This document shows, piece after piece, positions 1-14,758 of a stretch of DNA of 15,450 nt (within the stretch, counting starts at the first letter, position 1; every line of letters begins with the position of its first letter). The translations under genes and the position numbers were made by a program. The notes under the pieces are model-generated. The model had not been told where the DNA came from and did no database searches. It saw only the letters and a program-made list of their open reading frames with translations. The DNA is taken from positions 1 to 15,450 of the IMG/VR virus record IMGVR_UViG_2713897054_000018; one strand, given 5' to 3'. The DNA comes from a virus. Lineage: Duplodnaviria > Heunggongvirae > Uroviricota > Caudoviricetes.

Positions 1-324
1 TAAACTCACAGCAAAGAAAGAAGCAATCCTAATATCCATAAATGCATCTGGACCACTGATTAAGGGAAATAAATAGGTTAAGAAATAATTTGTTATCTCC
101 TTATCTGCTGGAGAGGCGGTAGTTAATTTTTTACTGGTTACAGAATTATATTTAATTGCGTATTTAACAATCAAAACACACAGTAAAAGTATAATTGCAC
201 ACAATGATAAGTAAGCAATCATAAATTTATAGTGTTTTGATATACATGAAAGAAAAGCTAAGGTAAAAAATACCGGAGCAACTGAGCTGGCAGTAAGAAG
301 ATATTTGGCAAGCTTATTTAACAT
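1..324 (-). CDS. Hypothetical integral membrane protein, N-terminal 108 codons only; gene continues beyond the left edge of the window
   Basis: Hand translation of the minus strand from ATG at 324-322 gives MLNKLAKYLLTASSVAPVFFTLAFLSCISKHYKFMIAYLSLCAIILLLCVLIVKYAIKYNSVTSKKLTTASPADKEITNYFLTYLFPLISGPDAFMDIRIASFFAVSL with no stop before position 1. GGAGG lies 7 nt upstream of the ATG (+ strand 331-335 CCTCC). Two or three strongly hydrophobic segments suggest transmembrane helices. AT-rich. No family recognised. Confidence 0.5.
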   Translation of the reverse strand, partial: MLNKLAKYLLTASSVAPVFFTLAFLSCISKHYKFMIAYLSLCAIILLLCVLIVKYAIKYNSVTSKKLTTASPADKEITNYFLTYLFPLISGPDAFMDIRIASFFAVSL

Positions 325-495
325 ATTATCCTCCTTATCTGCCCTGGTGTCTGTATATAAAAACAGTATAACATCAATTTAAGCATCAAAGAAGATAATA
401 AAAATCAATTAAATCATAATGATGCCTGCGTTTTTAAAGTGTGGGCTTTTGGAGGCGGGTAATGTACGCGCGTATTCCCTGGAGATTCCATTTAA

Positions 496-513
496 AAGGC
501 TACGTATGTAGCC
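496..513 (-). terminator. Possible hairpin terminator or RNA structure just downstream of the 103-aa gene
   Basis: Perfect inverted repeat AGGCTAC-GTAT-GTAGCCT (7-bp stem, 4-nt loop) starting 9 nt after the stop of the 522..833 ORF. The trailing sequence on the minus strand (TTTAAAT) is only weakly U-rich. Confidence 0.25.
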
Positions 514-521
514 TCATGTAT

Positions 522-833
522 TTAAGAGTACTGGCCCCAATCTCTGGCAATAAACCAGTTTGGCGTCCAGCTAACAAACTCTTGCGGATGAAAGTTTTGA
601 GGGATTACAACTAGAGATACAATCGCTTCAGGTTGCAAACTGAGAACATGACTTTTTTTATCGCTTTCGTAATCCCAAAAATGGAATCTGTCACTTTTAT
701 CATGAGCTCTACGACTAGGACCGAAGTCCATAGGCGCAGTTAATCTTGTGATTGTCGCGTTATCTTCTTTTGAATAAAAAGTTAGCTGAATTTTTAAACA
801 ACTATGAATGGCATCAATGAATTTATCGCGCAT
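522..833 (-). CDS. Hypothetical 103-aa protein in the satellite variable (hotspot) region; function unknown
   Basis: ORF track 522..833 minus. Strong RBS: minus-strand sequence AAGGAG then 6 nt then ATG (+ strand 840-845 CTCCTT). AT-rich codon usage unlike the P4 core. No recognisable catalytic motif by eye. Confidence 0.55.
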   Translation of the reverse strand: MRDKFIDAIHSCLKIQLTFYSKEDNATITRLTAPMDFGPSRRAHDKSDRFHFWDYESDKKSHVLSLQPEAIVSLVVIPQNFHPQEFVSWTPNWFIARDWGQYS

Positions 834-959
834 ACGTTCTCCTTTGTAGTTACTAAATTAATATCCTCTATTGATAGATTATTGTGTGTGATCATTGCGG
901 CATTTAATAAAACGTAATGAGTTCATTGTATTTTATTTATGTTATCAGCCTTGCGCGCA

Positions 960-978
960 GTGCTTTCCCCGCCTCGCC
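960..978. other. cos: cos site: 19-nt cohesive-end sequence of the P2/P4 family
   Basis: Sequence GTGCTTTCCCCGCCTCGCC is the exact reverse complement of the P2/P4 cohesive end as I recall it (GGCGAGGCGGGGAAAGCAC). Position is as expected, about 165 bp beyond the end of psu. Confidence 0.6.
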
Positions 979-1080
979 CGCCCGCTTTGCGGGGCGGTTT
1001 TAATGCAGTTGCACTGACACGCTCAGACCGCGCCGGGAATGGCGCGGTTTGCAGAAAATGAGGCAGGGAAACGCATGCAA

Positions 1081-1112
1081 AGCCATGCACCTTATCGATG
1101 CATGGCTTTTTT
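1081..1112. terminator. Palindromic hairpin plus T-run between cos and psu; likely terminator of the late operon, possibly bidirectional
   Basis: AGCCATGCA-(8 nt)-TGCATGGCT followed by TTTTTT on the + strand. It lies 30 nt downstream of the psu stop on the minus strand. The stem is self-complementary so it can form on either transcript. Confidence 0.4.
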
Positions 1113-1142
1113 CAGTAAAAACGGGCGGATTTTCGGGGAGTT

Positions 1143-1715
1143 TTACACAGACTGATGTGATGCCAGTTGCGCACTTTTACGCGAAAAAATCATGTTCTGC
1201 GCAGGAGTGAATTTTTCACGGCTGTCATCCACCGAAGCAGCGTCAGGCCTGAATCCGATGGTCGTTAAAATGTCGCTATCCTGTGCGGAATAATTAATTT
1301 TTTCTCCCTTCGCAAGCCAGGACAGAAGGGCTTCACGCAGGGCATCTGTGGCCCGCTGTATGGCACAGTTTCGGGCAATGGCCGTCAGCTCACTGTAGCC
1401 CATCAGCTCCGGTGCCAGTGCCGCCGCCAGTGCTGTGCCGTGCTGCTGCATAAAATCATTCAGCCGGTCGCGGATGCTGATGTGCTGAACGGCTTCATGC
1501 GAACGAATATAACGACCGGCGGCCTGATTCACCTGCCATTTTCTGACTTCGATAATATTGCGTAATTCGTCCAGGCGACTGACGTTTCTGCCTTCTCCTG
1601 ACAGAAGCCGCAGGTATTCCTGTTCGGCCGCTGCCAGCTCATTTTTGCGTTGCAGCCATGCTGCTTTGTTATTCTGACAGGTGTCAAAGGCCTGCTGTAA
1701 GGCTGTGCTTTCCAT
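1143..1715 (-). CDS. psu: Psu, polarity suppression protein (Rho antagonist and capsid decoration protein) of P4-type satellites
   Basis: 190-aa ORF, the same length as P4 Psu. The sequence matches my recollection of P4 Psu (MESTALQQAFDTCQNNKAAWLQRKNEL...). It is last in the sid-delta-psu order and next to cos. Confidence 0.9.
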   Translation of the reverse strand: MESTALQQAFDTCQNNKAAWLQRKNELAAAEQEYLRLLSGEGRNVSRLDELRNIIEVRKWQVNQAAGRYIRSHEAVQHISIRDRLNDFMQQHGTALAAALAPELMGYSELTAIARNCAIQRATDALREALLSWLAKGEKINYSAQDSDILTTIGFRPDAASVDDSREKFTPAQNMIFSRKSAQLASHQSV

Positions 1716-1788
1716 CGTTATCTCTTTCTCATCATGCTGAAGAATAAAAATACGGTGTGCGGCGACGGCCGGTGTTAACCGGCAGCCC

Positions 1789-2289
1789 TCATTCCAGACG
1801 CAGCGAATATGATTGTGTTTTTAACCGTACTGGCGGCAGTTCCTGTTTTTCATGCAGGCGTTCTGCCAGTTCGTCCGGCGTGACCGGGCGGACAATGAAG
1901 CGGTTGATGGTCTGAAGCGTTTTAAACACCAGACCACAGCCCGGATCCGTGCACACATAAAAACGCTCGGTGACTTCCTGAGACAGACGCCGCGATGTTC
2001 TTGACAGTGCAAGGCCTTTACATCTCCGACAACAATATCCGGTAACAAGCATTCTTTTCGGGCGTTTCATACTGCCGGAGGCTGACGTCAGTGAATCGCG
2101 GTATCTCTGTTTGCCTGAAATGTATTCCATTCCTGAATCTTTACAGTCAGAGAAAAAGCTTTCACTCGCTTCAAATGTCGCAGAGCAATAAATATTCCGG
2201 CACTGTGCAATCATTATCTTGGTGCCATCGTCCATGAAATGTGCGCGGCGGGTGTGAGCAACATGTCCACACGACGGGCAGTAAATCAT
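1789..2289 (-). CDS. delta: Delta, late-gene transcriptional activator (tandem Ogr-like zinc-finger domains)
   Basis: 166-aa ORF, the same length as P4 Delta. Two Cys4 zinc-finger units are present (CPSCGH...C..C and CRRCKG...C..C). Its start overlaps the sid stop (ATGA at 2286-2289). Confidence 0.9.
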   Translation of the reverse strand: MIYCPSCGHVAHTRRAHFMDDGTKIMIAQCRNIYCSATFEASESFFSDCKDSGMEYISGKQRYRDSLTSASGSMKRPKRMLVTGYCCRRCKGLALSRTSRRLSQEVTERFYVCTDPGCGLVFKTLQTINRFIVRPVTPDELAERLHEKQELPPVRLKTQSYSLRLE

Positions 2290-3020
2290 GACAGCAGTCC
2301 TCTGGCCTTAAGCTCTGCACCCTGCTGGTCTATTTTGTCCTGCCACACCTTGCGCTGTGCCGGTGTGCCTGCCACCTCATAATCCATGTGCGGGAGTGTT
2401 GCCGCTGACAGTCCGGTCAGCCGGAGAACCGGCTCGCCGGTGAGGCTGATTTGCATCTGTTTTATTTTCTGTTCCAGCGATGATTTCACCTGCTGCATGA
2501 CAGCCTTTTCCGCCGCGACGTAGCCCTGATGGCCGGTGGTGTTGGCGAGCGGATTTTCCTGTACCAGGATGCTCAGATGCATTGCCCGGACAAGCGCCTC
2601 ACAGGTTTCATTCAGGGCGTGTTCCAGCTCATGCTCTGCATACAGACTCAGCAGGTGATGATGTGCCTTCCGGTAGGCGGTGGCCGTGCTGTCACACGCC
2701 CCTTTCAGGCGTTCACATTCAAAATTCAGCACCACGGCCAGATTGTCATATTCCTGTACCAGCTCCCGGCGTGCCACGCGCTCAATGTGGCGCTGTTTCA
2801 GCTCGTCGCTCAGGACACCACCGGCTGCACGAAAGGCCGTGCGCCAGTCGTCAGCGTCGTTTCCGTCGGCCTGCGCCAGCGCATTTTTTTCCTGCTCTGC
2901 CCGTTCAATGGCCGTGATGGTCTCATCCATCAGGCGGGCGTTCTCAAGATGAGCGGCTCTGGCCTTTTCCAGTTGTGCCAGCGCGGGTTGCAGATATTCA
3001 GGGATGGTGTTGTCAGACAT
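2286..3020 (-). CDS. sid: Sid, capsid size-determination (external scaffold) protein
   Basis: The ORF track gives 250 aa from a GTG at 3038. The ATG at 3020 has GAGGAG 7 nt upstream and gives 244 aa, the P4 Sid length. It is the first gene of the late operon and is translationally coupled to delta. Confidence 0.85.
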   Translation of the reverse strand: MSDNTIPEYLQPALAQLEKARAAHLENARLMDETITAIERAEQEKNALAQADGNDADDWRTAFRAAGGVLSDELKQRHIERVARRELVQEYDNLAVVLNFECERLKGACDSTATAYRKAHHHLLSLYAEHELEHALNETCEALVRAMHLSILVQENPLANTTGHQGYVAAEKAVMQQVKSSLEQKIKQMQISLTGEPVLRLTGLSAATLPHMDYEVAGTPAQRKVWQDKIDQQGAELKARGLLS

Positions 3021-3092
3021 TTTCCGGCTCCTCGTCACTTCAGGTTAAGAAAATTGTGACGTACACCGGACAACAACACGACGCATTGCAGA

Positions 3093-3110
3093 TGTGCCAG
3101 CCCTGACACA
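3093..3110 (-). promoter_or_regulatory. Candidate Delta/Ogr binding site (TGT-N12-ACA) of the sid late promoter
   Basis: TGT GCCAGCCCTGAC ACA dyad centred about 80 bp upstream of the sid ATG, which is the right distance for a site centred near -55 with a short 5' UTR. A second TGT-N12-ACA at 3055-3072 is too close to sid to serve the same promoter. Confidence 0.45.
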
Positions 3111-3189
3111 GGAGACTCATCCTCAGACCGGCAAGCCAGGAAAAGGTCGCAGGAAAAACCGGCTTACTGTTTGTTTTTTTATATTTTAC

Positions 3190-3293
3190 TGTTCACCTCT
3201 GTTCACCATAAGAAAAAAGATAAGTAATACAGTAAGTTAAATGGTGAACAATCGCAGTAATGACTGTTCACCGTCTGTTCACCACTGTTCACC
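3190..3293. repeat. ori-like cluster of type I iterons (TGTTCACC), the expected binding sites for the alpha protein
   Basis: Exact TGTTCACC at 3190-3197, 3200-3207, 3265-3272, 3276-3283 and 3286-3293, plus an inverted copy GGTGAACA at 3243-3250. Lies between the divergent sid promoter and the leftward-operon promoters. Confidence 0.7.
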
Positions 3294-3452
3294 CGCTCAT
3301 GGACTTTTTGTGCTGTTTACTACTGTTTGTTTTTATTAATTCGCCGGGAATGAATAAGAAGAAACGATTTGTATTTCACTATAAAAATTACGAATTGCTT
3401 TAAGTGGCTTTAAATGACTTTAAGTGGGAATGAACAAAAAACACACAGTCAT

Positions 3453-3470
3453 TGTAAGGCGGCCGGAACA
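3453..3470 (+). promoter_or_regulatory. Candidate Delta/Ogr binding site (TGT-N12-ACA) of the late promoter for the leftward operon (P4 PLL equivalent)
   Basis: TGT AAGGCGGCCGGA ACA. A site centred near -55 predicts a start near 3516, about 400 bp upstream of the candidate early promoter, which matches the P4 PLL-PLE spacing. The vis ATG follows at 3573. Confidence 0.4.
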
Positions 3471-3572
3471 AATCCCCCCTGTTGCGTCTGCCAAAAAGAT
3501 TCACAAAATAAAGCGCTACCCGAAGCCGGACGGACTTATCCGGTGCTGTATGGACATTAACGAGGTAGCCCG

Positions 3573-3839
3573 ATGCAAGCTGTTTTTTCTTCCCCGTCTC
3601 CCTCCCCTGTGACGCCACTGATGCCGCTGCCGGACATCACGCAGGAGCGTTTTTTACGTCTGCCGGAAGTGATGCACCTGTGCGGCCTGTCACGCTCGAC
3701 CATCTATGAACTCATCCGTAAGGGGGAATTTCCGCCGCAGGTGAGTCTTGGCGGTAAAAATGTGGCCTGGCTGCACTCTGAAGTCACCGCATGGATGGCC
3801 GGGCGCATTGCCGGACGCAAACGGGGGTACGACGCATGA
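3573..3839 (+). CDS. vis: Vis-like small DNA-binding protein (AlpA family excision/regulatory protein)
   Basis: 88-aa ORF with GAGG 7 nt upstream of the ATG. The core [22 protein letters not shown]....LG...V.W...EV..W is an AlpA-type helix-turn-helix signature. Position matches P4 vis, between the late and early leftward promoters. Confidence 0.65.
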
Positions 3840-3883
3840 TGATGCCTGTTCTGCAAAAACTCCCTTTTTCTGGCTTGCCTTTT

Positions 3884-3913
3884 TCCGGCATTTGCGGATA
3901 TAGTTTTTCCGCT
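3884..3913 (+). promoter_or_regulatory. Candidate sigma-70 early promoter of the leftward operon (P4 PLE equivalent)
   Basis: TTGCCT (3884-3889), 18-nt spacer, TATAGT (3908-3913). The seqA-like element begins about 15 bp downstream. Confidence 0.35.
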
Positions 3914-4104
3914 GTCGCAAAATCGGCAGCCGGGCGTGAGAACCCGAGTATGTTATCGGCGACATATGACGCGCCATGCGTCTTTTTTTGTGTCGCAATC
4001 AACGCCACAGAGCACCAGATTATGGTGTGGCGTGTGGTTTGCCGTGCAGGTATGATCCTGTTCGCAATCGCATGTTATGCCTCTGAGTCAATGGTAGCTC
4101 AGGC

Positions 4105-4155
4105 GGGGCAGCCTCCGGGCTGGCCGGTTTCCGATAACGCCGGTATTCTCACCCC
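4105..4155 (+). ncRNA. cI: Candidate CI-like immunity RNA core (seqB), flanked by complementary seqA-like (about 3929-3963) and seqC-like (about 4176-4223) targets; boundaries approximate
   Basis: CCGATAACGCCGGTATTCTCAC (about 4128-4150) is complementary to the direct repeats GCGTGAGAAC...GTTATCGG found at 3929-3963 and 4176-4220. The seqC copy overlaps the RBS of the next ORF (GTTATCGGAGG). This is the arrangement of P4 transcription-termination immunity. Confidence 0.35.
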
Positions 4156-4228
4156 CGTCTGGGCTATCGCCATCGAGCGTGAGAACTCCGGCGATAGCGT
4201 CATTTACGCTGTTATCGGAGGTTGCCTT

Positions 4229-4426
4229 ATGGCTACGACCCTTACCCCTTCACACCCTGAATTTGTCTTTGTGTTTGCGGCTGTCCGTCGCGCAGACCGT
4301 CATCCCCGTATCTGCATGCTTCGCACCGTCGCCGGTGATGAACGCAGTGCCCGCCGTTCCCTTGTCCGTGACTATGTGCTCTCCCTTGCTGCCCGTCTGC
4401 CAGTGGTGGAGGTGTCCCGTGCGTAA
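4229..4426 (+). CDS. Small early protein (65 aa), first translated ORF after the immunity leader; kil/eta-like by position
   Basis: ATG at 4229 with GGAGG 7 nt upstream. It is in frame with the longer 3791..4426 ORF, whose upstream part covers the promoter and immunity RNA region and is probably not coding. Its stop overlaps the next start (GTGCGTAA). Confidence 0.45.
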
Positions 4427-4706
4427 TAAAAAAGCCCCTCAGACCGTCTCAGCGCGTCATGACGCCCGTGAACACCTCAGCATTGAGGCTTATCATAAGC
4501 TCAACCGTGCCAGCGCCGTATCCCAGTTTGTTGGGGGTGATTTGATTCACCGTGAACTCTCCGGCCTGCATCAGCTCTACATTCCGCATATTTTCAGCTA
4601 CCTGAATGAAGATATTGATTTTGTGCTGAATGAGCTGAAAGCCAAAGGCCTGTGCCGCGATTTTCTCGCCCAGCAGAAAGACCGGGGAGACAGGACGCAT
4701 GTTTGA
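4419..4706 (+). CDS. Small early protein (95 aa); epsilon-like by position (possible helper-prophage derepressor)
   Basis: GTG start at 4419 with GGAGG 6 nt upstream. It is the gene immediately upstream of the 151-codon ORF, the same relative position as P4 epsilon. The ORF track lists a longer in-frame version from 4179 that lacks an RBS. Confidence 0.45.
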
Positions 4707-5154
4707 TTTTCCCCAGCCCGGTGAGATTTACCGTTCTGCCGGTTTTCCCGATGTGGCCGTGGTCGGCATTCTGGAAGACGGTATTCCGTGGGAAATGCCG
4801 TACCGCTGCCCGGAAATTGTCTGGAACCCGTACCGCCGTAAATTCAGTATCCTTGTGCGTATCCTCGATGACGGGCGCACCACAGACATCCCGCTGGGGC
4901 GTTTTCTGCGGGAATTTACCTGTGACCGTCCTGACCTGTTCAGACGCAGCCCCGTAAACCGGCATGCGGTACTGAAAGAAATGGCCGGAGACCCGGAATT
5001 ACAGAAATGGCGGGAGAAATATCTGGATATTTACCCGCAGGAGCCTGTTCCGGTCAGCCGGGCGGCACCGGTGGCGCGGGAATGGCGGGAAATTCCCCGC
5101 ACGGAGCCTGACCCGGAAATCACCCCGGATAACAGTTACCGCAATTATCTGTAA
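4699..5154 (+). CDS. P4 orf151-like early protein, function unknown
   Basis: Exactly 151 codons, matching the P4 orf151 length and position in the leftward operon. Its start overlaps the stop of the preceding gene. Confidence 0.6.
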   Translation: MFDFPQPGEIYRSAGFPDVAVVGILEDGIPWEMPYRCPEIVWNPYRRKFSILVRILDDGRTTDIPLGRFLREFTCDRPDLFRRSPVNRHAVLKEMAGDPELQKWREKYLDIYPQEPVPVSRAAPVAREWREIPRTEPDPEITPDNSYRNYL

Positions 5155-5289
5155 TTAAAAAACGACACCCGAAAAATTAAATGTGCGTATTCGCGCAGGG
5201 ATACGCACGTCTTCAGGAGGCGCAGATATGCCTTATCAGTTAATGCAACCGGCACGGAATGCAGTCATCTGTCACAGGGAGGAAAGCAA

Positions 5290-5610
5290 ATGAAAACACC
5301 CTTACCGCCCGTCTTACGCGCTGCCCTTTACCGTCGCGCTGTCGCCTGTGCCTGGCTGACCGTGTGCGAACGTCAGCACCGCTACCCGCATCTCACCCTT
5401 GAGTCACTGGAGGCGGCCATCGCCGCTGAGCTGGAAGGCTTTTATCTGCGCCAGCACGGTGAGGAAAAAGGGCGTCAGATAGCCTGTGCCCTGCTGGAAG
5501 ATTTAATGGAATCCGGCCCCCTGAAGGCCGCGCCGTCGCTGTCCTTTCTCGGGCTGGTTGTGATGGATGAACTCTGTGCCCGTCACATAAAAGCGCCGGT
5601 ACTGCACTGA
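5290..5610 (+). CDS. Hypothetical 106-aa early protein directly upstream of alpha
   Basis: ORF track 5290..5610 with GGAGG 7 nt upstream. Its stop lies 15 nt before the alpha start. Codon usage matches the P4 core. Confidence 0.55.
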
Positions 5611-5624
5611 AGGAGAACAACACC

Positions 5625-6062
5625 ATGAAAATGAACGTAACCGCCACCGTCAGCCATGCGCTCGGCCACTGGCCGCGTATTCTCCCGGCGCTGGGGATTC
5701 AGGTGCTGAAAAACCGTCATCAGCCCTGTCCGGTCTGTGGCGGGAGTGACCGCTTCCGTTTTGATGACAGGGAGGGGCGCGGCACCTGGTACTGCAATCA
5801 GTGTGGTGCCGGTGACGGCCTGAAACTGGTTGAAAAGGTGTTTGGTGTCTCCCCGTCCGACGCGGCCACAAAGGTGGCTGCCGTGACCGGCAGCCTGCCC
5901 CCGGCTGACCCGGCAGTGACGGCCGCCGCCGGTGCTGAAACAGAAGCCGCCCGGAAGAACGCCGCCGCACTGGCACAAACCCTGATGGCGAAAACCCGTC
6001 CCGGAACCGGTAACGCCTACCTGACCCGCAAGGCTTTCCCGGCCGGGAATGCCGGATGCTGA
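5625..6062 (+). CDS. alpha: Alpha primase-helicase, N-terminal fragment (zinc-binding primase domain), ended by an apparent frameshift
   Basis: 145-aa ORF with AGGAG 9 nt upstream. Contains a CxxC...CxxC zinc motif (CPVCGGSDRFRFDDREGRGTWYCNQCG). It continues in another frame as the 633-aa ORF, and 145 + 633 is about the 777 aa of P4 alpha. Confidence 0.75.
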   Translation: MKMNVTATVSHALGHWPRILPALGIQVLKNRHQPCPVCGGSDRFRFDDREGRGTWYCNQCGAGDGLKLVEKVFGVSPSDAATKVAAVTGSLPPADPAVTAAAGAETEAARKNAAALAQTLMAKTRPGTGNAYLTRKAFPAGNAGC

Positions 6063-7957
6063 CCGGCACACACAGAGCCGGTGGCGTGAGCTGGCGTGCC
6101 GGTGACCTTGTGGTGCCACTGTATGACGACAGCGGCGAACTGGTTAACCTTCAGTTAATCAGTGCTGACGGCCGTAAGCGCACCCTGAAAGGCGGGCAGG
6201 TCAGGGGCACCTGTCACATCCTTGAAGGACAGAATCAGGCCGGAAAACGTCTGTGGATAGCGGAGGGATACGCGACCGCACTTACCGTGCATCACCTGAC
6301 CGGTGAAACGGTGATGGTGGCGCTTTCTTCCGTGAACCTCCTTTCTCTGGCCAGCCTTGCCCGGCAGAAGCATCCGGCCTGTCAGATTGTCCTTGCCGCA
6401 GACCGTGACCTCAGCGGTGACGGCCAGAAAAAAGCCGCCGCAGCCGCAGATGCGTGTGAAGGTGTTGTTGCCCTGCCGCCGGTCTTCGGTGACTGGAATG
6501 ATGCCTTCACGCAGTACGGCGGGGAAGCCACCCGTAAGGCCATTTATGATGCCATCCGGCCACCGGCTGAAAGCCCGTTCGACACCATGAGCGAAGCGGA
6601 GTTTTCCGCCATGAGTACCAGCGAAAAGGCCATGCGTATCTATGAGCATTACGGCGAGGCGCTCGCGGTTGATGCCAACGGCCAGCTTCTGTCCCGTTAT
6701 GAAAATGGTGTCTGGAAGGTGCTGCCACCACAGGACTTTGCCCGGGATGTGGCCGGGCTGTTTCAGCGGCTGCGCGCGCCGTTCTCCTCCGGGAAGGTGG
6801 CCTCCGTGGTGGACACCCTGAAGCTGATTATTCCGCAGCAGGAAGCCCCCTCCCGCCGCCTGATTGGCTTTCGTAACGGCGTGCTCGACACGCAGAACGG
6901 CACGTTCCACCCGCACAGTCCGTCACACTGGATGCGCACCCTGTGCGATGTGGATTTCACCCCGCCGGTGGAAGGGGAAACGCTGGAAACCCACGCCCCC
7001 GCGTTCTGGCGCTGGCTTGACCGTGCCGCCGGTGGCCGTGCGGAAAAACGCGACGTGATTCTGGCCGCACTGTTTATGGTGCTGGCAAACCGCTACGACT
7101 GGCAGCTCTTTCTGGAGGTGACCGGTCCCGGCGGCAGCGGCAAAAGTATCATGGCCGAAATAGCCACCCTGCTGGCCGGGGAGGATAACGCCACGTCGGC
7201 CACCATTGAGACGCTGGAATCCCCGCGTGAACGTGCCGCGTTAACTGGCTTCTCACTGATACGCCTGCCGGACCAGGAAAAATGGAGCGGCGACGGAGCC
7301 GGACTCAAGGCCATCACCGGCGGCGATGCAGTGTCCGTTGACCCGAAATACCGGGATGCGTACTCCACGCACATCCCGGCGGTGATTCTGGCCGTGAACA
7401 ATAACCCGATGCGCTTCACCGACCGCAGCGGCGGCGTGTCACGCCGGCGGGTGATTATTCACTTCCCGGAACAGATAGCCCCGCAGGAGCGCGACCCGCA
7501 GCTTAAGGACAAAATCACCCGCGAGCTGGCGGTCATCGTGCGTCACCTGATGCAGAAGTTCAGCGACCCGATGCTCGCCCGGTCACTGCTTCAGTCCCAG
7601 CAGAACTCAGACGAGGCGCTGAACATCAAACGGGATGCCGACCCGACGTTTGATTTTATCGGCTATCTGGAAACCCTGCCGCAGACCAGCGGCATGTATA
7701 TGGGGAACGCCAGTATCATCCCGCGTAATTACCGTAAATACCTCTATCACGCCTATCTGGCCTACATGGAGGCAAACGGCTACCGGAATGTACTCAGTCT
7801 GAAAATGTTCGGGCTGGGGCTGCCGGTGATGCTGAAGGAATACGGACTGAATTACGAGAAGCGCCATACCAAACAGGGGATACAGACCAACCTGACGCTG
7901 AAAGAGGAAAGCTACGGCGACTGGCTGCCAAAATGTGACGACCCTGCAACAGCCTGA
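6056..7957 (+). CDS. alpha: Alpha primase-helicase, C-terminal part (TOPRIM-like primase core plus helicase with Walker A GPGGSGKS)
   Basis: 633-aa ORF. Its frame is open back to 6014 and overlaps the N-terminal fragment. Walker A motif VTGPGGSGKS is present. It is followed directly by the crr iteron repeats. Confidence 0.8.
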   Translation: MLTGTHRAGGVSWRAGDLVVPLYDDSGELVNLQLISADGRKRTLKGGQVRGTCHILEGQNQAGKRLWIAEGYATALTVHHLTGETVMVALSSVNLLSLASLARQKHPACQIVLAADRDLSGDGQKKAAAAADACEGVVALPPVFGDWNDAFTQYGGEATRKAIYDAIRPPAESPFDTMSEAEFSAMSTSEKAMRIYEHYGEALAVDANGQLLSRYENGVWKVLPPQDFARDVAGLFQRLRAPFSSGKVASVVDTLKLIIPQQEAPSRRLIGFRNGVLDTQNGTFHPHSPSHWMRTLCDVDFTPPVEGETLETHAPAFWRWLDRAAGGRAEKRDVILAALFMVLANRYDWQLFLEVTGPGGSGKSIMAEIATLLAGEDNATSATIETLESPRERAALTGFSLIRLPDQEKWSGDGAGLKAITGGDAVSVDPKYRDAYSTHIPAVILAVNNNPMRFTDRSGGVSRRRVIIHFPEQIAPQERDPQLKDKITRELAVIVRHLMQKFSDPMLARSLLQSQQNSDEALNIKRDADPTFDFIGYLETLPQTSGMYMGNASIIPRNYRKYLYHAYLAYMEANGYRNVLSLKMFGLGLPVMLKEYGLNYEKRHTKQGIQTNLTLKEESYGDWLPKCDDPATA

Positions 7958-8008
7958 CCCACCTGACCGGCATCTGCCGGTCTTTTTTTTATCCCGACAT
8001 CCCCCGAA

Positions 8009-8275
8009 GGTGAACAATCCACTGTTCACCCTTCACCGTATATTCACCCGTTATCACACTGAAATTAAAAGAGAAAAACGAAAGGTGAACAGTGTAATCA
8101 AATCAAAAAAACTTTTTTTCTCCCTGTGTGATTTCAGTACGGGGGATTAATCACCGGTATGAGTCACACCGGCAGAATGCCGGAGGTGAAGAATCGAATG
8201 TTCACCCTTCACCCATTATTCACCACCTATCACTCTGAAATAAAAGGAGAAAAAAGAAAGGTGAACAGTGTGAAC
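8009..8275. repeat. crr-like cis replication region: two direct repeats of about 85-120 bp, each carrying TGTTCACC iterons
   Basis: Repeat unit 1 at about 8020-8105 and unit 2 at about 8194-8280 (CCACTGTTCACCCTTCACCG...GAAAGGTGAACAGTG in both). Exact octamers at 8009-8016 and 8083-8090 (both inverted), 8023-8030, 8199-8206 and 8259-8266 (inverted), plus degenerate copies. About 4.8 kb from the ori-like cluster. Confidence 0.7.
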
Positions 8276-8319
8276 AGTTCTTTCGAAAAAAAATTTTTTA
8301 TGTGGATAAAAGATGCACT

Positions 8320-8346
8320 GGTTTGGATCCGAGCTACGGATCCAAA
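8320..8346. repeat. Perfect 11-bp inverted repeat with 5-nt loop (GTTTGGATCCG agcta CGGATCCAAAC)
   Basis: Read directly from the sequence. It sits in the AT-rich stretch between crr and the att-like core. It could be a protein binding site or an RNA hairpin. Confidence 0.4.
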
Positions 8347-8492
8347 CTTACTGATTAAAAATGATTTAACTTTCCGATTTATTGATGGGCTGAAAATAGA
8401 TTGGTCAGAAAAACAGTGGGGGCACAAAAGGGGGCATATTTCATTGTTGTATTTTATTATTTGTTTTTTATCATTAACTTATTTTGATGTTT

Positions 8493-8513
8493 GAGTCCGG
8501 CCTTCGCACCACA
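8493..8513 (+). other. att-like core: fragment resembling the 3' end of a tRNA-Leu (leuX-like) gene; probable right boundary of the satellite
   Basis: GAGTCCGGCCTTCGCACCA resembles the T-arm and acceptor 3' end of E. coli leuX as I recall it (GAGTCCGGCCTTCGGCACCA), differing by one base. There is no intact T-stem or anticodon arm upstream, so it is a fragment. A strong terminator follows, and composition changes on both sides. Confidence 0.45.
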
Positions 8514-8735: not shown

Positions 8736-11700
8736 TTATATCTGCCCGCCTACACCTTTAAACTTCTCAATAAACGCGACGATCTTCTGGAAAACCGTCT
8801 GTTTTTTCGTCTTATATTGCGGATTTAACGGACTGAGTTTTGGCAATGTCTCGTTTAATTCCGTGCCATTTTCGGTGGCGTATTCGCGTTTTAAAGACGT
8901 GCGAATATAGCGTTTCGCCGCCTCTTCATTGAGATTTTCTTCTTTGATCAAGGCTTCTGCTTCACGTTGCTGTTCGCGTTGAGCAAAGGTAAAAAACGCG
9001 TCAATGATGCTGGCTTTATCCGGCAAATCATCCAGGTTCGTTTGCTGAATAAAATCGACCACCAGACCTTCTTTGGCACGGTTCCCAAGGCTTGAACGAA
9101 TTAAGCGTTTGACCTCTTCGGTCATTTCGCCCTTACCTTTGTTTTGTCTGTTGTGTTCGAAAATCAGTCCAAGGATATAATCCAGGTTTATTTCCTGAGA
9201 CTTCAGCAAATCGATTTCAAAAACCACGTCATCCCAGTCAGTAGTTAACTTTTCTTTTTTGCCAGCCTCTTTCTCGCGGCGCTGCCAGTCACGAATATCG
9301 TTATAGGCAGAACGATAATCCTGAATCTTGCGTTCAGCAGGGAGACGAATCGTTTGTAATTCAGCGAACTTTTCATCATCCACATAATGTTCTTCTTTGA
9401 ATTTTTCTACCGCAACAGGATCGCTAAGATCGATTTGTTGCAGGGCTTTCAGCGTGGCAAATTCATCATAGTTTTGCAGGATGTTCTCGGCACGCAGGTA
9501 TTCACCAAACAGTTTAACGAAGTCTTTCTTCTCTTTTTCACTTTCAATACTGGCAGGGTCAGGGAACCGTTGTTCCAGTTCTGAAACTACTGCCATAAAG
9601 CCGCGTTTAGCTTCACCAGTGGCAGCATCAGTAAAGCCTTCCATATACTCTGCATAACTCTTTTCTAACACTACATTTTTGGTATTTTTATCACCAAACA
9701 GCGTTATGGCATCAATGGTTGAGCGTTCCAGATCCCGGAAAGTGACGATGTTACCGAAGGTTTTAGTGGCGTTATAAATGCGGTTGGTGCGGGAGAATGC
9801 CTGCATCAGGCCGTGAAAACGCAAGTTTTTATCGACGAATAGCGTGTTCAATGTTGGAGCGTCGAAGCCGGTTAAAAACATCCCAACGACAATTAACAGA
9901 TCGATATCCTGATTTTTAACCCGTTGGGCTAAATCACGATAGTAGTTCTGAAAACCGTTACTGTCGGTGCTGAAGTTAGTTTTAAAATAGCTGTTATACT
10001 CACGAATTGCAGCGTCAAGAAACTCTTTAGCACTGCTGTCCATTGCGCTGGTATCAAAAGTTTCATCGGAAATTTCACCAATGGCATTTTGTTCTTCATT
10101 GGCGGCAAAGGAGAAGATTGTCGCAACACGCAGCGGTTTATAGGTAGCCGATTTATTAGCTGCTTCCTCTTGTAACCGTTTAAACGTCGCGTAATAGGCT
10201 TTCGCGGCATCCACGCTACTCACTGCCAGCATGGCATTAAAGCCTTTGGAACCTGGGAAAGTACGGTGGGTCTTCTGGCGGAAGTTATTCAGAATATATT
10301 GCGTAATTTCCTGTATACGCATGGGATGAAGAAACGCCTGCTGATTTTCAGCCGCACTCAGTTTTTTCTCGTCGGTTTCTGTCTCTAAAGACTTAAACTG
10401 TGGCCGCACATCGTTGTAGTCCACCTTGAATTTAAGCACTTTTTCATCTCGAATCGCATCGGTAATAACATATGAATGCAATTCACGACCAAATACACTG
10501 GCGGTCGTTTCTGAACCTAAAGCGTTTTCCGGGAAAATAGGGGTACCGGTAAAACCAAACTGATAATAGCGTTTGAATTTCTTCTTCAGGTTTTTCTGCG
10601 CTTCTCCAAACTGGCTGCGGTGGCATTCATCAAATATAAACACCACTTGCTGATTGTATACAGGCAGGTCGCTTTCTGCTTTCATCAGGTTATTAAGTTT
10701 CTGAATAGTGGTGACGATAATTTTGTTATCGTCCTTATCCAGATTTCGTTTAAGACCTGCTGTATTTTCCGAGCCGTTAACACTATCTGGCGAAAAACGC
10801 TGATATTCCTTCATGGTCTGGTAATCGAGATCTTTCCTGTCGACCACAAAGAAAACTTTATCAATAAAGTCCAGTTCTGTTGCCAGACGTGCGGCTTTAA
10901 AGCTGGTCAGTGTTTTACCAGAACCGGTTGTGTGCCAGATAAAGCCACCGCTTTCGGGGGTAGACCAGTTTTTCGCTTTATAGGAGCTGTTGATTTTCCA
11001 TAAGATACGCTCAGTGGCGGCAATCTGGTACGGTCGCATCACTAGTAGCGTTTGGCTAATATCGAACACGCTGTAGTTCACTAAGACATTAAGCAGAGTA
11101 TGTTTCTGGAAAAAGGTAGCGGTAAAGTCTTTGAGGTCTTTAATCAGCGTGTTGTCTGATTTCGCCCAGTTCATGGTGAAGTCAAAACTGTTTTTATCGC
11201 GCTTTGTGGTGTTGGCAAAGTAACGGGTATCGGTGCCGTTAGAAATGACAAACAGTTGCAGATACTTAAACAGGGAATTTTCGCTGTTAAAACTCTCTTT
11301 ACTGTAACGATGTATCTGGTTGAAAGCCTCACGAATCGCCACGCCGCGCTTTTTCAGTTCGATTTGTACCAGTGGTAAGCCATTAACCAGGATCGTGACG
11401 TCATAACGGTTAGCATGAGAACCCGCCTGTTCAAACTGCTGGATAATCTGCACCTTATTGCGCATGAGATTCTTTTTATCTATCAAATAGATGTTCTCAA
11501 GACGCTCGTCATCAAAAATAAAGTCGCAAATATAGTCGATATGGATTTTACGGGTCTTATCCAGAATGCCATCACTCGGGTTGTCCAGATATTGCTCCGT
11601 GAAACGCCGCCACTCGCTGTCATTAAATACCACACCATTGAGGCTCTGAAGCTGTTCCCGAACATTGGACAGCATCGCCAACTGTGATTTTACCGAAATA

Positions 11701-11852
11701 AATTCATAGCCCTGATTCCGCAGGTCCTGAATCAGTTCCCGTTCCAGGTCCGATTCGCTCTGGTAGCTGTCGCCTGTTTGCTCAGCTTTGATGTACTTAT
11801 CAAGGACGATAAAGTTATTGGATTCAGCAATGGTGTGTGTCTGATGAGTCAT
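8736..11852 (-). CDS. hsdR: Type I restriction enzyme R subunit (HsdR), type IC-like
   Basis: 1038-aa ORF, the same length as EcoR124I HsdR. N-terminal PD-(D/E)xK-like nuclease motif (D...IELKK), SF2 helicase motif I (HTTGSGKT) and motif II (DECHRSQ). Order hsdM-hsdS-hsdR with a 121-bp gap before hsdR is typical of the IC family. Confidence 0.9.
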
Positions 11853-11973
11853 AGCGCATCCTTTGTGCCGCCTGGCAAGGGCCGGAAGGGCGTTAAGAGT
11901 GACTTCCGGCGCGTAAAAAATAGTCTATATACAGACCGGGTGTTAAGGTGGCCCGGTCGGTAGCAATGGTCAA

Positions 11974-13205
11974 TTAATTACTGACAGTTTCAGGTTTCGG
12001 GAAACTGAACAGTAAATCACGATAGTACTCGTATTGTTTCTGGCGCAACTCGATTTCACGCGGAAGGCCTTCGGTGATGGAGTTTGTCAGGGTGTCGAAT
12101 TTATCGAGAATAGATACTATACGTTCCTGTATCTCCATAGAAGGGACTGGAATTAATATCTTAGATAAATTATCAGCATTTACACGTCGAACTTTTGCGC
12201 CAGTAATATACTGTCTTTTTTGATTTTGGAATTGTTCTGTTTGAAAAAAATATGAGACATACTTAGGGTTTAAATTATGTTTGTAAATACAGGCATCACT
12301 GCTTACTGCTATATCTTCACTGCCTAACCATGCAACAGCTTTACATACATCCTCATCATTCTCACTAGTAGTTGCGATAATCAAATCTCCCTTTTGAGCT
12401 TCTTGCATTTTTTTGCAAGTGCGGTTGAAATATATGTTTTTGTTTTTTCTGTATATGTTCCGTAATACGTATAGATTTGACCATAGTGTATGCACCCTAC
12501 ACCTGCATCTATAAAGTCTTTTTTCTGAAAAGTACCACCCCGGATAAACTCGCCAATATCTTTTTGCCCCATAGGTAAATGTGGAACATCTTCGGTATTA
12601 AAACTAAACAACTGGTCGCGATAGTAGTTGTACTGTTTTTTACGCATGTTAAGCTCAGCGGTAAGCTCAGCGGTAAGTGCAGTAAACTTATCCAGAATCC
12701 GAACAATTTCAGACTGGATGGCAAGGGATTTCTCCGGATTATCCGGGCAGGGGATGGGGACTAACCTTTTTTCAATTGTAGTTTTGCTGATGTGCATCAT
12801 AGTAGAACCAGTGCTATGTGCATCTTTAAGTGCTTTAGTATCCCATTGTAACAAGTAATATAGAAACTGTTTACAAATAAGATTCGAATCTGGAACCACT
12901 TTCCATATGTGATAATGGTAAATAGATTTACCCCCATGCCAAATTCTTGGACCAAATGATGCGGACCAAGCATATAAAAGGTCACCGTTATCACAATACT
13001 TGTCTTGATCTAATTCTAAATCTGAGTAATACCAATTTTGGTTAGTAAAAAAATTACCGACTCTTAATACTGGATATTTGCCTTTGGAAAGCAGTTCTTC
13101 TTGCTTATATGCTCTCCCGTTTATTAAACGACAAACTTTAGCCAATGGCAACCACTCAACTTCAACCCCATCCAGCAATTTTTCCAGATAACTTAACTCG
13201 CTCAT
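11974..13205 (-). pseudogene. hsdS: Type I specificity subunit (HsdS), type IC family with two TAEL repeats; reading frame broken into 274- and 173-codon ORFs
   Basis: The N-terminal ORF (12381..13205) begins [21 protein letters not shown] and carries the central conserved region with LTAELTAEL. The C-terminal ORF (11974..12495) ends in the conserved ...LPREIELRQKQYEYYRDLLFSFPKPETVSN. The two overlap in different frames at a homopolymer tract (+ strand T7 at 12409-12415). The start overlaps the hsdM stop. Confidence 0.75.
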
Positions 13206-14758
13206 TTCTGCACCTCGTAGCCTTCAATTTCAGCCACAATCGCATCAATATCTTTGCGCAATTGGTCGATTTTGCTGACCGTGGTTTTCAGCTCTGCATT
13301 CAACTCAGCGATATCGATAATTTCGCGAGTATCTTTCGCTTCCACATAGCTGCTCACCGACAGGTTATAGTCATTCGCGACAACGGTCTCAAACGCGACA
13401 GATTTCGCCAGATGAGCAACATCTTCCTTGCTGGCAAATACCTGCATAATCTGTTCGATATGGGCATCGGTCAGAATGTTGTTGTTAGTCTCTTTTTTGA
13501 ACAGCTCGCTGGCATCAATAAACTGAACGTTGGTATCCGTTTTATGTTTAGACAACACCAGAATATTGACGGCAATGGTGGTGCCAAAGAACAGGTTCGG
13601 TGCGAGTGAAATCACGGTTTCGACATAGTTATTGTCAACCAGATACTGACGGATTTTCTGCTCCGCGCCGCCACGGTAAAAAATGCCCGGGAAGCAGACA
13701 ATCGCAGCACGACCTTTGGCAGAAAGATAGTTCAGCGCATGTAATACAAACGCAAAGTCAGCTTTGGATTTGGGGGCCAGAACGCCAGCCGGGGCAAAAC
13801 GTTCATCGTTAATCAGCGTCGGGTCATCGCTGCCAATCCATTTCACCGAATACGGCGGGTTAGAAACGATGGCATCAAACGGTTTTTCATCTCTGAAGTG
13901 CGGCTCAGTCAGCGTATTGCCCAGCTTGATATCAAACTTGTCGTAGTTGATGTTGTGCAAAAACATGTTCATACGCGCCAGGTTATAGGTCGTATGGTTG
14001 ATTTCCTGACCAAAAAAACCTTCTTCGATGATATGGTCATCAAACTGTTTTTTAGCCTGCAACAACAGCGAACCGGAACCTGCTGCCGGGTCGTAGATTT
14101 TGTTAACGTGGGTCTGGCCGTGCATTGCCAGTTGTGCAATCAGCTTAGAGACGTGCTGCGGTGTAAAGAACTCGCCGCCTGACTTACCAGCATTCGCCGC
14201 ATAGTTAGAAATCAGGAACTCATAGGCATCGCCGAACAGGTCAATCTGATGTTCGTTAAAGTCGCCAAGCTTTAACCCTTCAACCCCTTTCAGAACCGCA
14301 GCCAGGCGGGCATTTTTATCCTTAACGGTGTTACCCAGGCGGTTACTGGTGGTATCGAAATCAGCAAACAAACCTTTGATGTCAGCTTCTGAAGGGTAAC
14401 CGTAAGCAGAACTTTCGATAGCAACGAAGATACTGTTTAAATCTGCATTCAGTCTGTCATTGGTATTTGCTTTCGCAGCTACGTTGCAGAAAAGCTGACT
14501 TGGGTAGATGAAGTAGCCTTTAGTTTTGATGGCATCGTCTTTAATGTCATCAGTAATTACGCTGTCATCCAGTTTCGCATAACAGATACTGTCATCACCG
14601 GCTTCAATATAGCTGGAAAAATTTTCGCTGATAAAACGGTAGAAAAGCGCGCCCAGAACGTATTGCTTAAAGTCCCATCCATCGACCGAACCTCTGACAT
14701 CGTTAGCAATTTGCCAGATTTGGCGATGAAGCTCCGCGCGCTGCTGAAGGCTGGTCAT
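13202..14758 (-). CDS. hsdM: Type I N6-adenine DNA methyltransferase subunit (HsdM)
   Basis: 518-aa ORF with an AAGGA RBS. AdoMet-binding motif [10 protein letters not shown] and catalytic motif NPPY (SNPPYSVKW). It is translationally coupled to hsdS. Confidence 0.9.

Follow-up and report, generated by a model that had tools for sequence, protein, structure and literature searches.

Does the window—the whole 15,450-nucleotide stretch of DNA analysed here—contain a P4-like phage satellite in its left part, and if so is the element intact, or decayed as its apparently broken alpha gene would suggest? An earlier note, made from the sequence alone, had described this part as a near-complete P4-like satellite prophage with an intact late operon and a broken alpha, and had proposed alignment to the P4 reference as a check. 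That alignment was run, and positions 951-8511 are collinear with nt 28 to 1 followed by 11624 to 4078 of Enterobacteria phage P4 (NC_001609 / X51522), with 97.6% DNA identity over 7.56 kb and the cos junction included. Identity is high across psu, delta, sid and alpha, gene order is consistent, and the two elements are alike in cos, ori, crr and the att arm. The proteins of this segment (Psu, Delta, Sid, Vis, Epsilon, ORF151, ORF106 and Alpha) share 96-100% identity with their P4 counterparts, the sole exception being the immunity-region ORF (85%). The segment carries psu, delta, sid, ori, vis, the CI-RNA immunity region, epsilon, orf151, orf106, alpha, crr, the attR core and an exact 19-nt cos; coordinates are given in Table 1. 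We conclude with high confidence that positions 1-8511 are the larger part of an integrated P4-like Escherichia coli phage satellite, that the element is complete in the source genome, and that its alpha frameshift is most probably a sequence error.

Table 1. Features of the satellite in the window.
Feature	Position	Strand	Details
kwaA, 5' part (108 codons; Kiwa membrane component)	1-324	-	Cut by window edge; strong SD GGAGG before ATG at 324
ORF103, conserved 103-aa protein	522-833	-	SD AAGGAG; predicted stand-alone WYL-like (Sm-fold) structure
cos region	951-1035	-	P4 homology starts at 951; 951-978 = P4 nt 28-1
psu (polarity suppression / capsid decoration)	1143-1715	-	190 aa; 98.9% to P4 Psu; PF07455 on identical protein in locus L009
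delta (late-gene transactivator, two Ogr-like zinc-finger halves)	1789-2289	-	166 aa; 98.2% to P4 Delta; PF04606
sid (external scaffold forcing small capsids)	2286-3020	-	244 aa; 98.4% to P4 Sid
Two TGT-N12-ACA dyads (Psid activator sites by homology)	3055-3110		At 3055 and 3093; homologous to P4 9531 and 9493
ori	3190-3427		Six type-1 iterons TGTTCACC (3190-3293) and three 10-bp type-2 repeats (3398-3427); P4 annotation
TGT-N12-ACA dyad of late leftward promoter PLL	3453-3470		Homologous to P4 dyad at 9133
vis (ORF88, AlpA-type excisionase/regulator)	3573-3839	+	88 aa; 97.7% to P4 ORF88; PF05930
ORF over immunity region (PGAP 'Icd-like'; P4 'cI ORF137' / Phage_ASH)	3836-4426	+	84.8% to P4 ORF; phrog_6928
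PLE promoter-like site and immunity leader	3875-3988	+	Promoter-like 3875-3904; terminator 3968-3988 (promoter/terminator scan)
seqA GTTATCGG	3952-3959	+	Within immunity leader
CI RNA (immunity factor)	4087-4174	+	Rfam C4 RF01695, full-length model, 76.2 bits, E 1e-13
seqB loop CCGATAAC	4131-4138	+	Within CI RNA; complementary to seqA and seqC
seqC GTTATCGG, second CI RNA target	4211-4218	+	Complement of seqB
epsilon (helper derepression)	4419-4706	+	95 aa; 98.9% to P4; PF25738
orf151	4699-5154	+	96% to P4; phrog_10748
orf106 (cnr, DUF5375)	5290-5610	+	100% to P4
alpha primase-helicase	5625-7957	+	Frame broken in the window at codon 136, where one G is missing (6032-6033)
crr (cis replication region)	8004-8299		Two ~120-bp repeats with type-1 iterons
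attR core	8493-8511	+	GAGTCCGGCCTTCG-CACCA, one G less than attL; right end of element

The description as 'near-complete' does not fit the window, where 8,511 bp of an element of roughly 11,100 bp are found (about 77%); the element itself is complete in the source genome. The left window edge runs through kwaA, and int, kwaB and attL/leuX lie outside it. Over ~11.1 kb the source genome carries, in order, tRNA-Leu(leuX)/attL, int, kwaB, kwaA, ORF103, cos, psu, delta, sid, ori, vis, the CI-RNA immunity region, epsilon, orf151, orf106, alpha, crr and attR. The integrase beside the hotspot (locus L002 12584-13849) is 93% identical to P4 Int and has Arm-DNA-bind_3, Phage_int_M and Phage_integrase domains. 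All seven components of the P4-like definition, as set out by Moura de Sousa & Rocha 2022 (PMC8628076)—psu, delta, sid, alpA/vis, epsilon, alpha and integrase—are thus found in the source genome ('Type A'), the integrase outside the window.

The ends of the element are bounded by comparison with empty sites. In four genomes leuX is followed directly by the right flank seen in the window, and the element appears as an 11.1-kb insertion between leuX and the leuX terminator. The insertion is bounded by att repeats at the tRNA gene, attL lying inside tRNA-Leu (L002 12401-12420) as the leuX 3' end; leuX is the integration site of both P4 and this element. The attL and attR cores differ by one G, and the attR core is likewise one G shorter than that of P4; the missing base could affect excision, but the variant is shared by 210 genomes and has at least two different right flanks. 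An ORF at 8159-8494, labelled 'integrase' by PGAP, has no family match and overlies crr and the att arm repeats, and was not treated as an integrase.

Within the late operon, psu, delta and sid are intact at the codon counts that the earlier note gave, and its match to cos holds: positions 960-978(-) match the 19-nt cohesive end GGCGAGGCGGGGAAAGCAC without a mismatch, and P4 homology is uninterrupted through cos to position 951. The overlapping stops and starts noted there are present at the sid/delta junction (ATGA, 2286-2289), which is the sole overlap in the operon; delta and psu are 73 nt apart. The Delta-type TGT-N12-ACA dyads do occur at P4-homologous positions, but their number in the whole window (6 found versus 3.65 expected) is not above chance. 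Enrichment was therefore rejected as statistical evidence, and the dyads are supported by positional homology. The two iteron clusters proposed as ori and crr are confirmed: TGTTCACC occurs in six copies at 3190-3293 (ori) and in five at 8009-8267 (crr), 11 found versus 0.45 expected, with 4.8 kb between the clusters. The vis-like AlpA gene was also recognised correctly.

In the immunity region, too, the CI-RNA-type leader suggested earlier is recovered. The leader matches Rfam isrK (3911-3988, 68 bits), and the CI RNA downstream fits the covariance model of the P1/P7 c4 antisense RNA (Rfam RF01695) over its full length at 76 bits. In P4-type elements this RNA makes the satellite's own early transcript terminate prematurely and is not known to control ant. 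The 8-mer CCGATAAC lies at 4131, and its complement is found at 3952 and 4211 of the same transcript. Where P4 has CCTGTGAA as seqB this element has CCGATAAC, seqA and seqC matching accordingly in each, and in related loci the seqA, seqB and seqC changes are matched in each of three alleles, which argues for selection acting on the RNA immunity. RNA-based immunity of the same design, with other seqA, seqB and seqC specificity, is reported for hetero-immune relatives of P4 such as retronphage phiR73 (Sabbattini et al. 1996, Virology). A P4-like element with a reverse transcriptase at the same site is present in locus L021.

Positions 1-950 are a known variable hotspot, here occupied by ORF103 (103 aa) and the 5' portion of kwaA; in P4 the hotspot holds gop-beta-cII, whereas this element has kwaB-kwaA-ORF103. 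The complete kwaA (L002 14809-15324) and the adjoining kwaB (DUF4868), which lies outside the window, are both matched by PADLOC (KwaA, E 1.6e-76; KwaB, E 6.5e-117) and together form a Kiwa system, of which only the first 108 kwaA codons are in the window. Kiwa is listed explicitly among P4-hotspot systems in Rousset et al. 2022 (PMC9122126).

ORF103, at the cos-proximal edge of the hotspot, has no Pfam, PHROG or PADLOC match. It has 91 homologues, and index entries for the protein occur in 4,410 blocks of the sequence collection. Its AF2 model (pLDDT 93.5) gives as top Foldseek matches the WYL domains of PafBC, BrxR, DriD and CapW (TM 0.55-0.6, E 1.6e-3 to 5e-2); Pfam WYL matches the family weakly, in only 3 of 37 members (E ~0.04), and ORF103 has no HTH domain. 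In E. coli it neighbours Kiwa; in a P4-like element of Yersinia its neighbour is a DUF2971 gene. The available portions of PMC9122126 and PMC8628076 contain no discussion of ORF103 that we could find. It is conceivable, though doubtful, that satellite hotspots have in this conserved stand-alone WYL-like protein an accessory module not yet described, perhaps one that senses a ligand or nucleic acid and regulates the defence genes beside it, or a counter-defence 'sponge'; it may equally be a passenger gene.

A further question is whether alpha is truly broken. In the window it is read as two pieces, 5625-6062 (145 aa) and 6056-7957 (633 aa), with 95% identity to P4 Alpha over aa 1-139 and 99.4% over aa 136-777, with the zinc ribbon (aa 30-66) left on one side of the frameshift and the Toprim and helicase domains on the other. 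The alpha primase-helicase and its broken appearance were correctly described in the earlier note. True inactivation in the isolate, with helper interference through Sid, Psu and Delta kept and autonomous replication lost, would explain the frameshift in the window as given and the separation of these domains, and alpha-less P4-like variants exist in nature and are reported as frequent (PMC8628076). We nevertheless consider it very unlikely. The whole window differs from GenBank CP042950.1 by no substitutions and three 1-nt deletions in 15 kb: GGG>GG in alpha, CC>C in hsdS and GG>G in an intergenic position. Alpha is intact, with 777 aa, in CP042950.1, in the near-identical FWSEC0008 and in eight of ten related loci, and many assemblies show the identical arrangement, with alpha at 777 aa. 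Among 5,426 complete E. coli genomes, none has a 43-mer spanning the alpha deletion, whereas 927 have the intact 44-mer. Neither of the two truncated alpha products was found in a public catalogue of 153 billion gene positions drawn from the gene calls of public assemblies, and the truncated hsdS product is also absent from the public gene catalogue. Private 1-nt G/C deletions with no substitutions in 15 kb are a pattern typical of sequence error, which is most probably also how the alpha frameshift came into this copy; the element is therefore to be regarded as intact. The suggestion that it replicates poorly is not supported, since CP042950.1, base-identical at alpha save for the missing G, has the intact gene.

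Two further readings concern the nature of the element as a whole. It might be a domesticated island, immobile in effect and retained because of its Kiwa cargo, vertically inherited with its att mismatch and not acting as a satellite. The attR core one base off attL fits this, as does the presence of the same variant, without the G, in 210 genomes. An attR constructed from the canonical core and this right flank has no exact full-length match in complete genomes, where only partial matches of the leuX/attB type are seen, and a free attP form (P arm, core with or without the G, and P' arm) has no match in IMG/VR or JGI metagenome contigs, a result that is in itself uninformative. Against immobility, the satellite genes and cis sites are all intact and 96-100% identical to those of mobilisable P4, and empty sites are common in close relatives. 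The variant attR, moreover, lies beside at least two different right flanks and co-occurs with differing cargo and immunity alleles, which fits repeated integration better than one frozen copy; we regard domestication as unlikely. The cos shared with P2-like phages (90-93% identity to their cos regions over 953-1025) could instead point to part of a P2-like helper prophage, or to an island of another type such as a PICI. However, similarity to P2 is absent beyond ~70 bp at cos, structural genes are absent, and the genes agree with P4 in both content and order, leaving this reading with a negligible probability.

If the integrated satellite behaves as P4 does—and it is by analogy with P4 that dependence on a helper, shrinking of the capsid, immunity and excision are ascribed to it—its life cycle can be outlined as follows. 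In quiescence, the seqB loop of a small processed CI RNA would base-pair with the seqA and seqC sites of the early transcript, which would then terminate. When a P2-like helper is present, Epsilon would derepress it, and Delta, or the helper's Ogr, would activate Psid and PLL. Alpha would replicate the element from ori and crr. With Sid as external scaffold, the helper capsid would assemble at a smaller size suited to an 11-kb genome, Psu would decorate the small capsid, and the helper terminase would package the satellite through the shared cos. Int and Vis would integrate and excise the element at the leuX 3' end. The hotspot beside cos carries the Kiwa (KwaA/KwaB) anti-phage system.

The element is of a common and well-known type, a P4 relative with Kiwa at leuX, and everything about it is already known. 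In Rousset et al. 2022 (PMC9122126) and Moura de Sousa & Rocha 2022 (PMC8628076), P4-like E. coli satellites have their variable locus between psu/cos and int, as here, and no material difference is seen. P4-like satellites occur in roughly one quarter to one half of E. coli genomes and Kiwa cargo is published, so the locus has little discovery value. Its use lies in what it corrects. Alpha, and hsdS next to it, look like pseudogenes because of private single-base deletions, which are not to be taken as biology; the complete element is bounded exactly by means of empty sites; and the immunity allele is not that of P4, which predicts that the element would not be immune to P4 itself.

In a megablast search of phage records, window 979-8511 matches the minus strand of phage P4 (X51522 / NC_001609) over nucleotides 11624-4078 with 97.6% identity, which bears out the earlier identification of a P4-like satellite prophage; the element is of a well-known kind. 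In local blastn the homology crosses the cohesive-end junction and reaches window 951 (P4 nucleotide 28), so that the P4 segment is 951-8511, and the segment reads as a genome that was circularised and then integrated. Among complete E. coli genomes, full-length matches to the window are present in the O91:H21 strain FWSEC0008 (NZ_CP031906.1) and in STEC2017-197. Coordinates of the features are listed in the table.

Features of the satellite and its right flank (window coordinates unless prefixed L002, one of the loci compared)
Feature	Coordinates	Strand	Remarks
ORF103	522-833	minus	103 aa, conserved; strong ribosome-binding site
cos, 19-nt cohesive end	960-978		exact match
psu	1143-1715	minus	190 aa; 98.9% identity to P4 protein
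delta	1789-2289	minus	166 aa; 98.2% identity to P4 protein
sid	2286-3020	minus	244 aa; 98.4% identity to P4 protein
TGT-N12-ACA dyads	3055, 3093		before sid; homologous to P4 9531, 9493
ori iterons	3190-3293		6 copies of TGTTCACC
ori type-2 repeats	3398-3427		
TGT-N12-ACA dyad	3453		before vis; homologous to P4 9133
vis	3573-3839		97.7% identity to P4 ORF88
Leader hairpins, terminator	3911-3988		Rfam isrK, 68 bits
CI RNA	4087-4174		Rfam C4 family, 76 bits
alpha	5625-7957		P4 Alpha 95% (aa 1-139), 99.4% (aa 136-777), in two frames
Deletion 1	6032-6033		GGG>GG, alpha codon 136
crr iterons	8009-8267		5 copies of TGTTCACC
attR	8493-8511		CTTCG-CACCA vs CTTCGGCACCA in attL: one G fewer
hsdR	8736-11852		directly after attR
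hsdS	11974-13205	minus	split into ORFs of 173 and 274 aa
Deletion 2	12399		CC>C in hsdS
hsdM	13202-14758		with hsdR, hsdS a type I restriction-modification system
Deletion 3	14909		GG>G, intergenic
attL	L002 12401-12420		3' end of tRNA-Leu, GAGTCCGGCCTTCGGCACCA

Gene calls and comparison with P4 agree with the codon counts claimed earlier for psu, delta and sid, and the claimed cos match is confirmed. Overlapping stop and start codons, proposed for the late operon as a whole, are found between sid and delta only (ATGA); delta and psu lie 73 nt apart. The vis-like AlpA gene is present as described, and epsilon, orf151 and orf106 share 98.9%, 96% and 100% identity with P4. The ori and crr iteron clusters do lie about 4.8 kb apart, and the 11 iterons compare with 0.45 expected by chance. 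Delta-type dyads are found where P4 has its own; the TGT-N12-ACA motif is not enriched across the whole window (6 found, 3.65 expected), so the weight is carried by the dyad positions only. A 111-aa ORF at 8159-8494 (+) bears the label 'integrase' from PGAP, and GeneMark predicted the same ORF in P4. It overlies crr and the att arm repeats in a low-GC stretch; with no match in Pfam or PHROG it was rejected as a recognisable integrase, and probably no real gene is present there.

The right end had been placed at 8513, correct to within two bases. In four genomes with the same hsdR gene, leuX directly adjoins the window's right flank, with CACCGTATGC and the leuX terminator, and the element is thus an insertion of about 11.1 kb. 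No further copies of the att core occur in 45 kb, and no free attP was found in IMG/VR or JGI metagenome contigs. The attR core is one G shorter than P4 attP as well as attL. Because this variant, carried by 210 complete E. coli genomes, adjoins at least two different right flanks, with differing cargo and immunity alleles, and because the core is canonical in the related locus L017, it looks like a property of a satellite lineage's att site, not decay of the copy in the window.

The region right of attR is chromosomal context, outside the satellite. Beyond hsdRSM (8736-14758) there are a DUF4942 fragment and an IS3, and further along the genome McrBC and then a phosphorothioate-dependent endonuclease (L002 30067-36073); from the hsd genes through this endonuclease the leuX locus has a defence island. 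This island abuts leuX with no satellite between in some genomes. A different P4-like element is present at the same leuX/hsdR site in GCA_045583715.1 (L021 13598-22709), with a reverse transcriptase (RVT_1) and an STM3845-family gene in its hotspot, a retron-like cargo, and an 890-aa primase.

At the other end, window 1-950 is AT-rich and has no homology to P4 in local blastn. To the left of the window the source genome has tRNA-Leu, integrase, kwaB and kwaA, in that order; the integrase, outside the window, is 93% identical to P4 Int, and the window edge cuts through kwaA, leaving its first 108 codons inside. PADLOC profiles recognise both Kiwa proteins (KwaA, E 1.6e-76; KwaB, E 6.5e-117). 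By the description in Rousset et al., which lists Kiwa among the cargoes (PMC9122126), this region is the psu-int hotspot. Moura de Sousa & Rocha (PMC8628076) class an element with all seven family components as 'Type A', and this element, with all seven, is of that type.

ORF103, within the hotspot, matches no family profile and has 91 homologues of equal length. In E. coli P4-like hotspots it lies at the cos-proximal edge, with Kiwa; a Yersinia P4-like element with a different cargo (DUF2971) has a counterpart at the same position, and homologues occur elsewhere in Photobacterium and Acinetobacter. Its confident AF2 model (pLDDT 93.5) has the look of a stand-alone WYL (Sm-like) domain, similar to the WYL domains that defence regulators and DNA-damage regulators contain, and the protein may be WYL-like by predicted structure, with weak support from sequence.

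The earlier note took alpha to be apparently broken and proposed an element that may replicate poorly yet still interfere with helper phages. This proposal is not borne out, since the break in alpha on which it depends is almost certainly an error in the sequence. Against GenBank CP042950.1, the best public match, the window has exactly three single-base deletions and no substitutions; FWSEC0008 gives the identical three gaps and one substitution, at 6745. The deletions at 12399 and 14909 are private to the window, being absent from CP042950.1 and from every related locus, and HsdS has 410 aa in other genomes, in contrast to the split gene here. A stretch of 15 kb that has three deletions in G/C runs and not one substitution bears the mark of sequence error, not of evolution. 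The alpha frameshift is very probably not biological. Were it real, the zinc ribbon (aa 30-66) would be cut off from the Toprim and helicase domains.

The spread of the alpha deletion was tested with a 43-mer centred on it, such that a megablast seed is impossible without the deletion. None of 5,426 complete genomes matched, and a 44-mer with GGG intact was found in 927 genomes, at 1,114 places; a control 42-mer of like design across attR found its 210 genomes, so the method works. In a public catalogue that covers 153 billion gene positions, no called gene corresponds to either alpha fragment or to the 173-aa hsdS fragment. Alpha has 777 aa in eight of ten related loci. Among the exceptions is L015 (GCA_046507445.1), an assembly in which the satellite genes are broken up, as are the housekeeping genes beside them (lptF/G, pepA, yjgR); it illustrates how sequence rich in errors can pass for pseudogenes. 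Decayed copies do exist: in locus L014 (CP070296.2; L014 9225-10312) a real deletion has removed everything from psu into orf106, and this derivative of the same Kiwa-bearing element retains alpha, ORF103, kwaAB and int.

The Rfam C4 and isrK matches substantiate the proposed CI-RNA-type immunity leader. Window and P4 differ at 183 alignment columns (163 mismatches and 20 gap positions), with a concentration of 44 within 4000-4250. The CI RNA loop (seqB, 4131-4138), which would pair with the early-transcript targets seqA and seqC, is CCGATAAC in the window and CCTGTGAA in P4; its complement GTTATCGG stands at 3952-3959 and 4211-4218, and P4 has TTCACAGG at both places. A third allele, CCGTTAGA paired with two copies of TCTAACGG, is present in locus L011, and matched changes in seqA, seqB and seqC give at least three alleles among the related loci; L010 and L013 carry yet another loop, TTCTTCGAGG, for which a simple 8-mer search found no partners. 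P4 relatives with hetero-immunity are known from the older literature. The window-type allele is common, with 215 genomes to 277 of the P4 type, and the three-way covariation of seqA, seqB and seqC supports a working RNA immunity in this element, with a specificity that would be other than that of P4.
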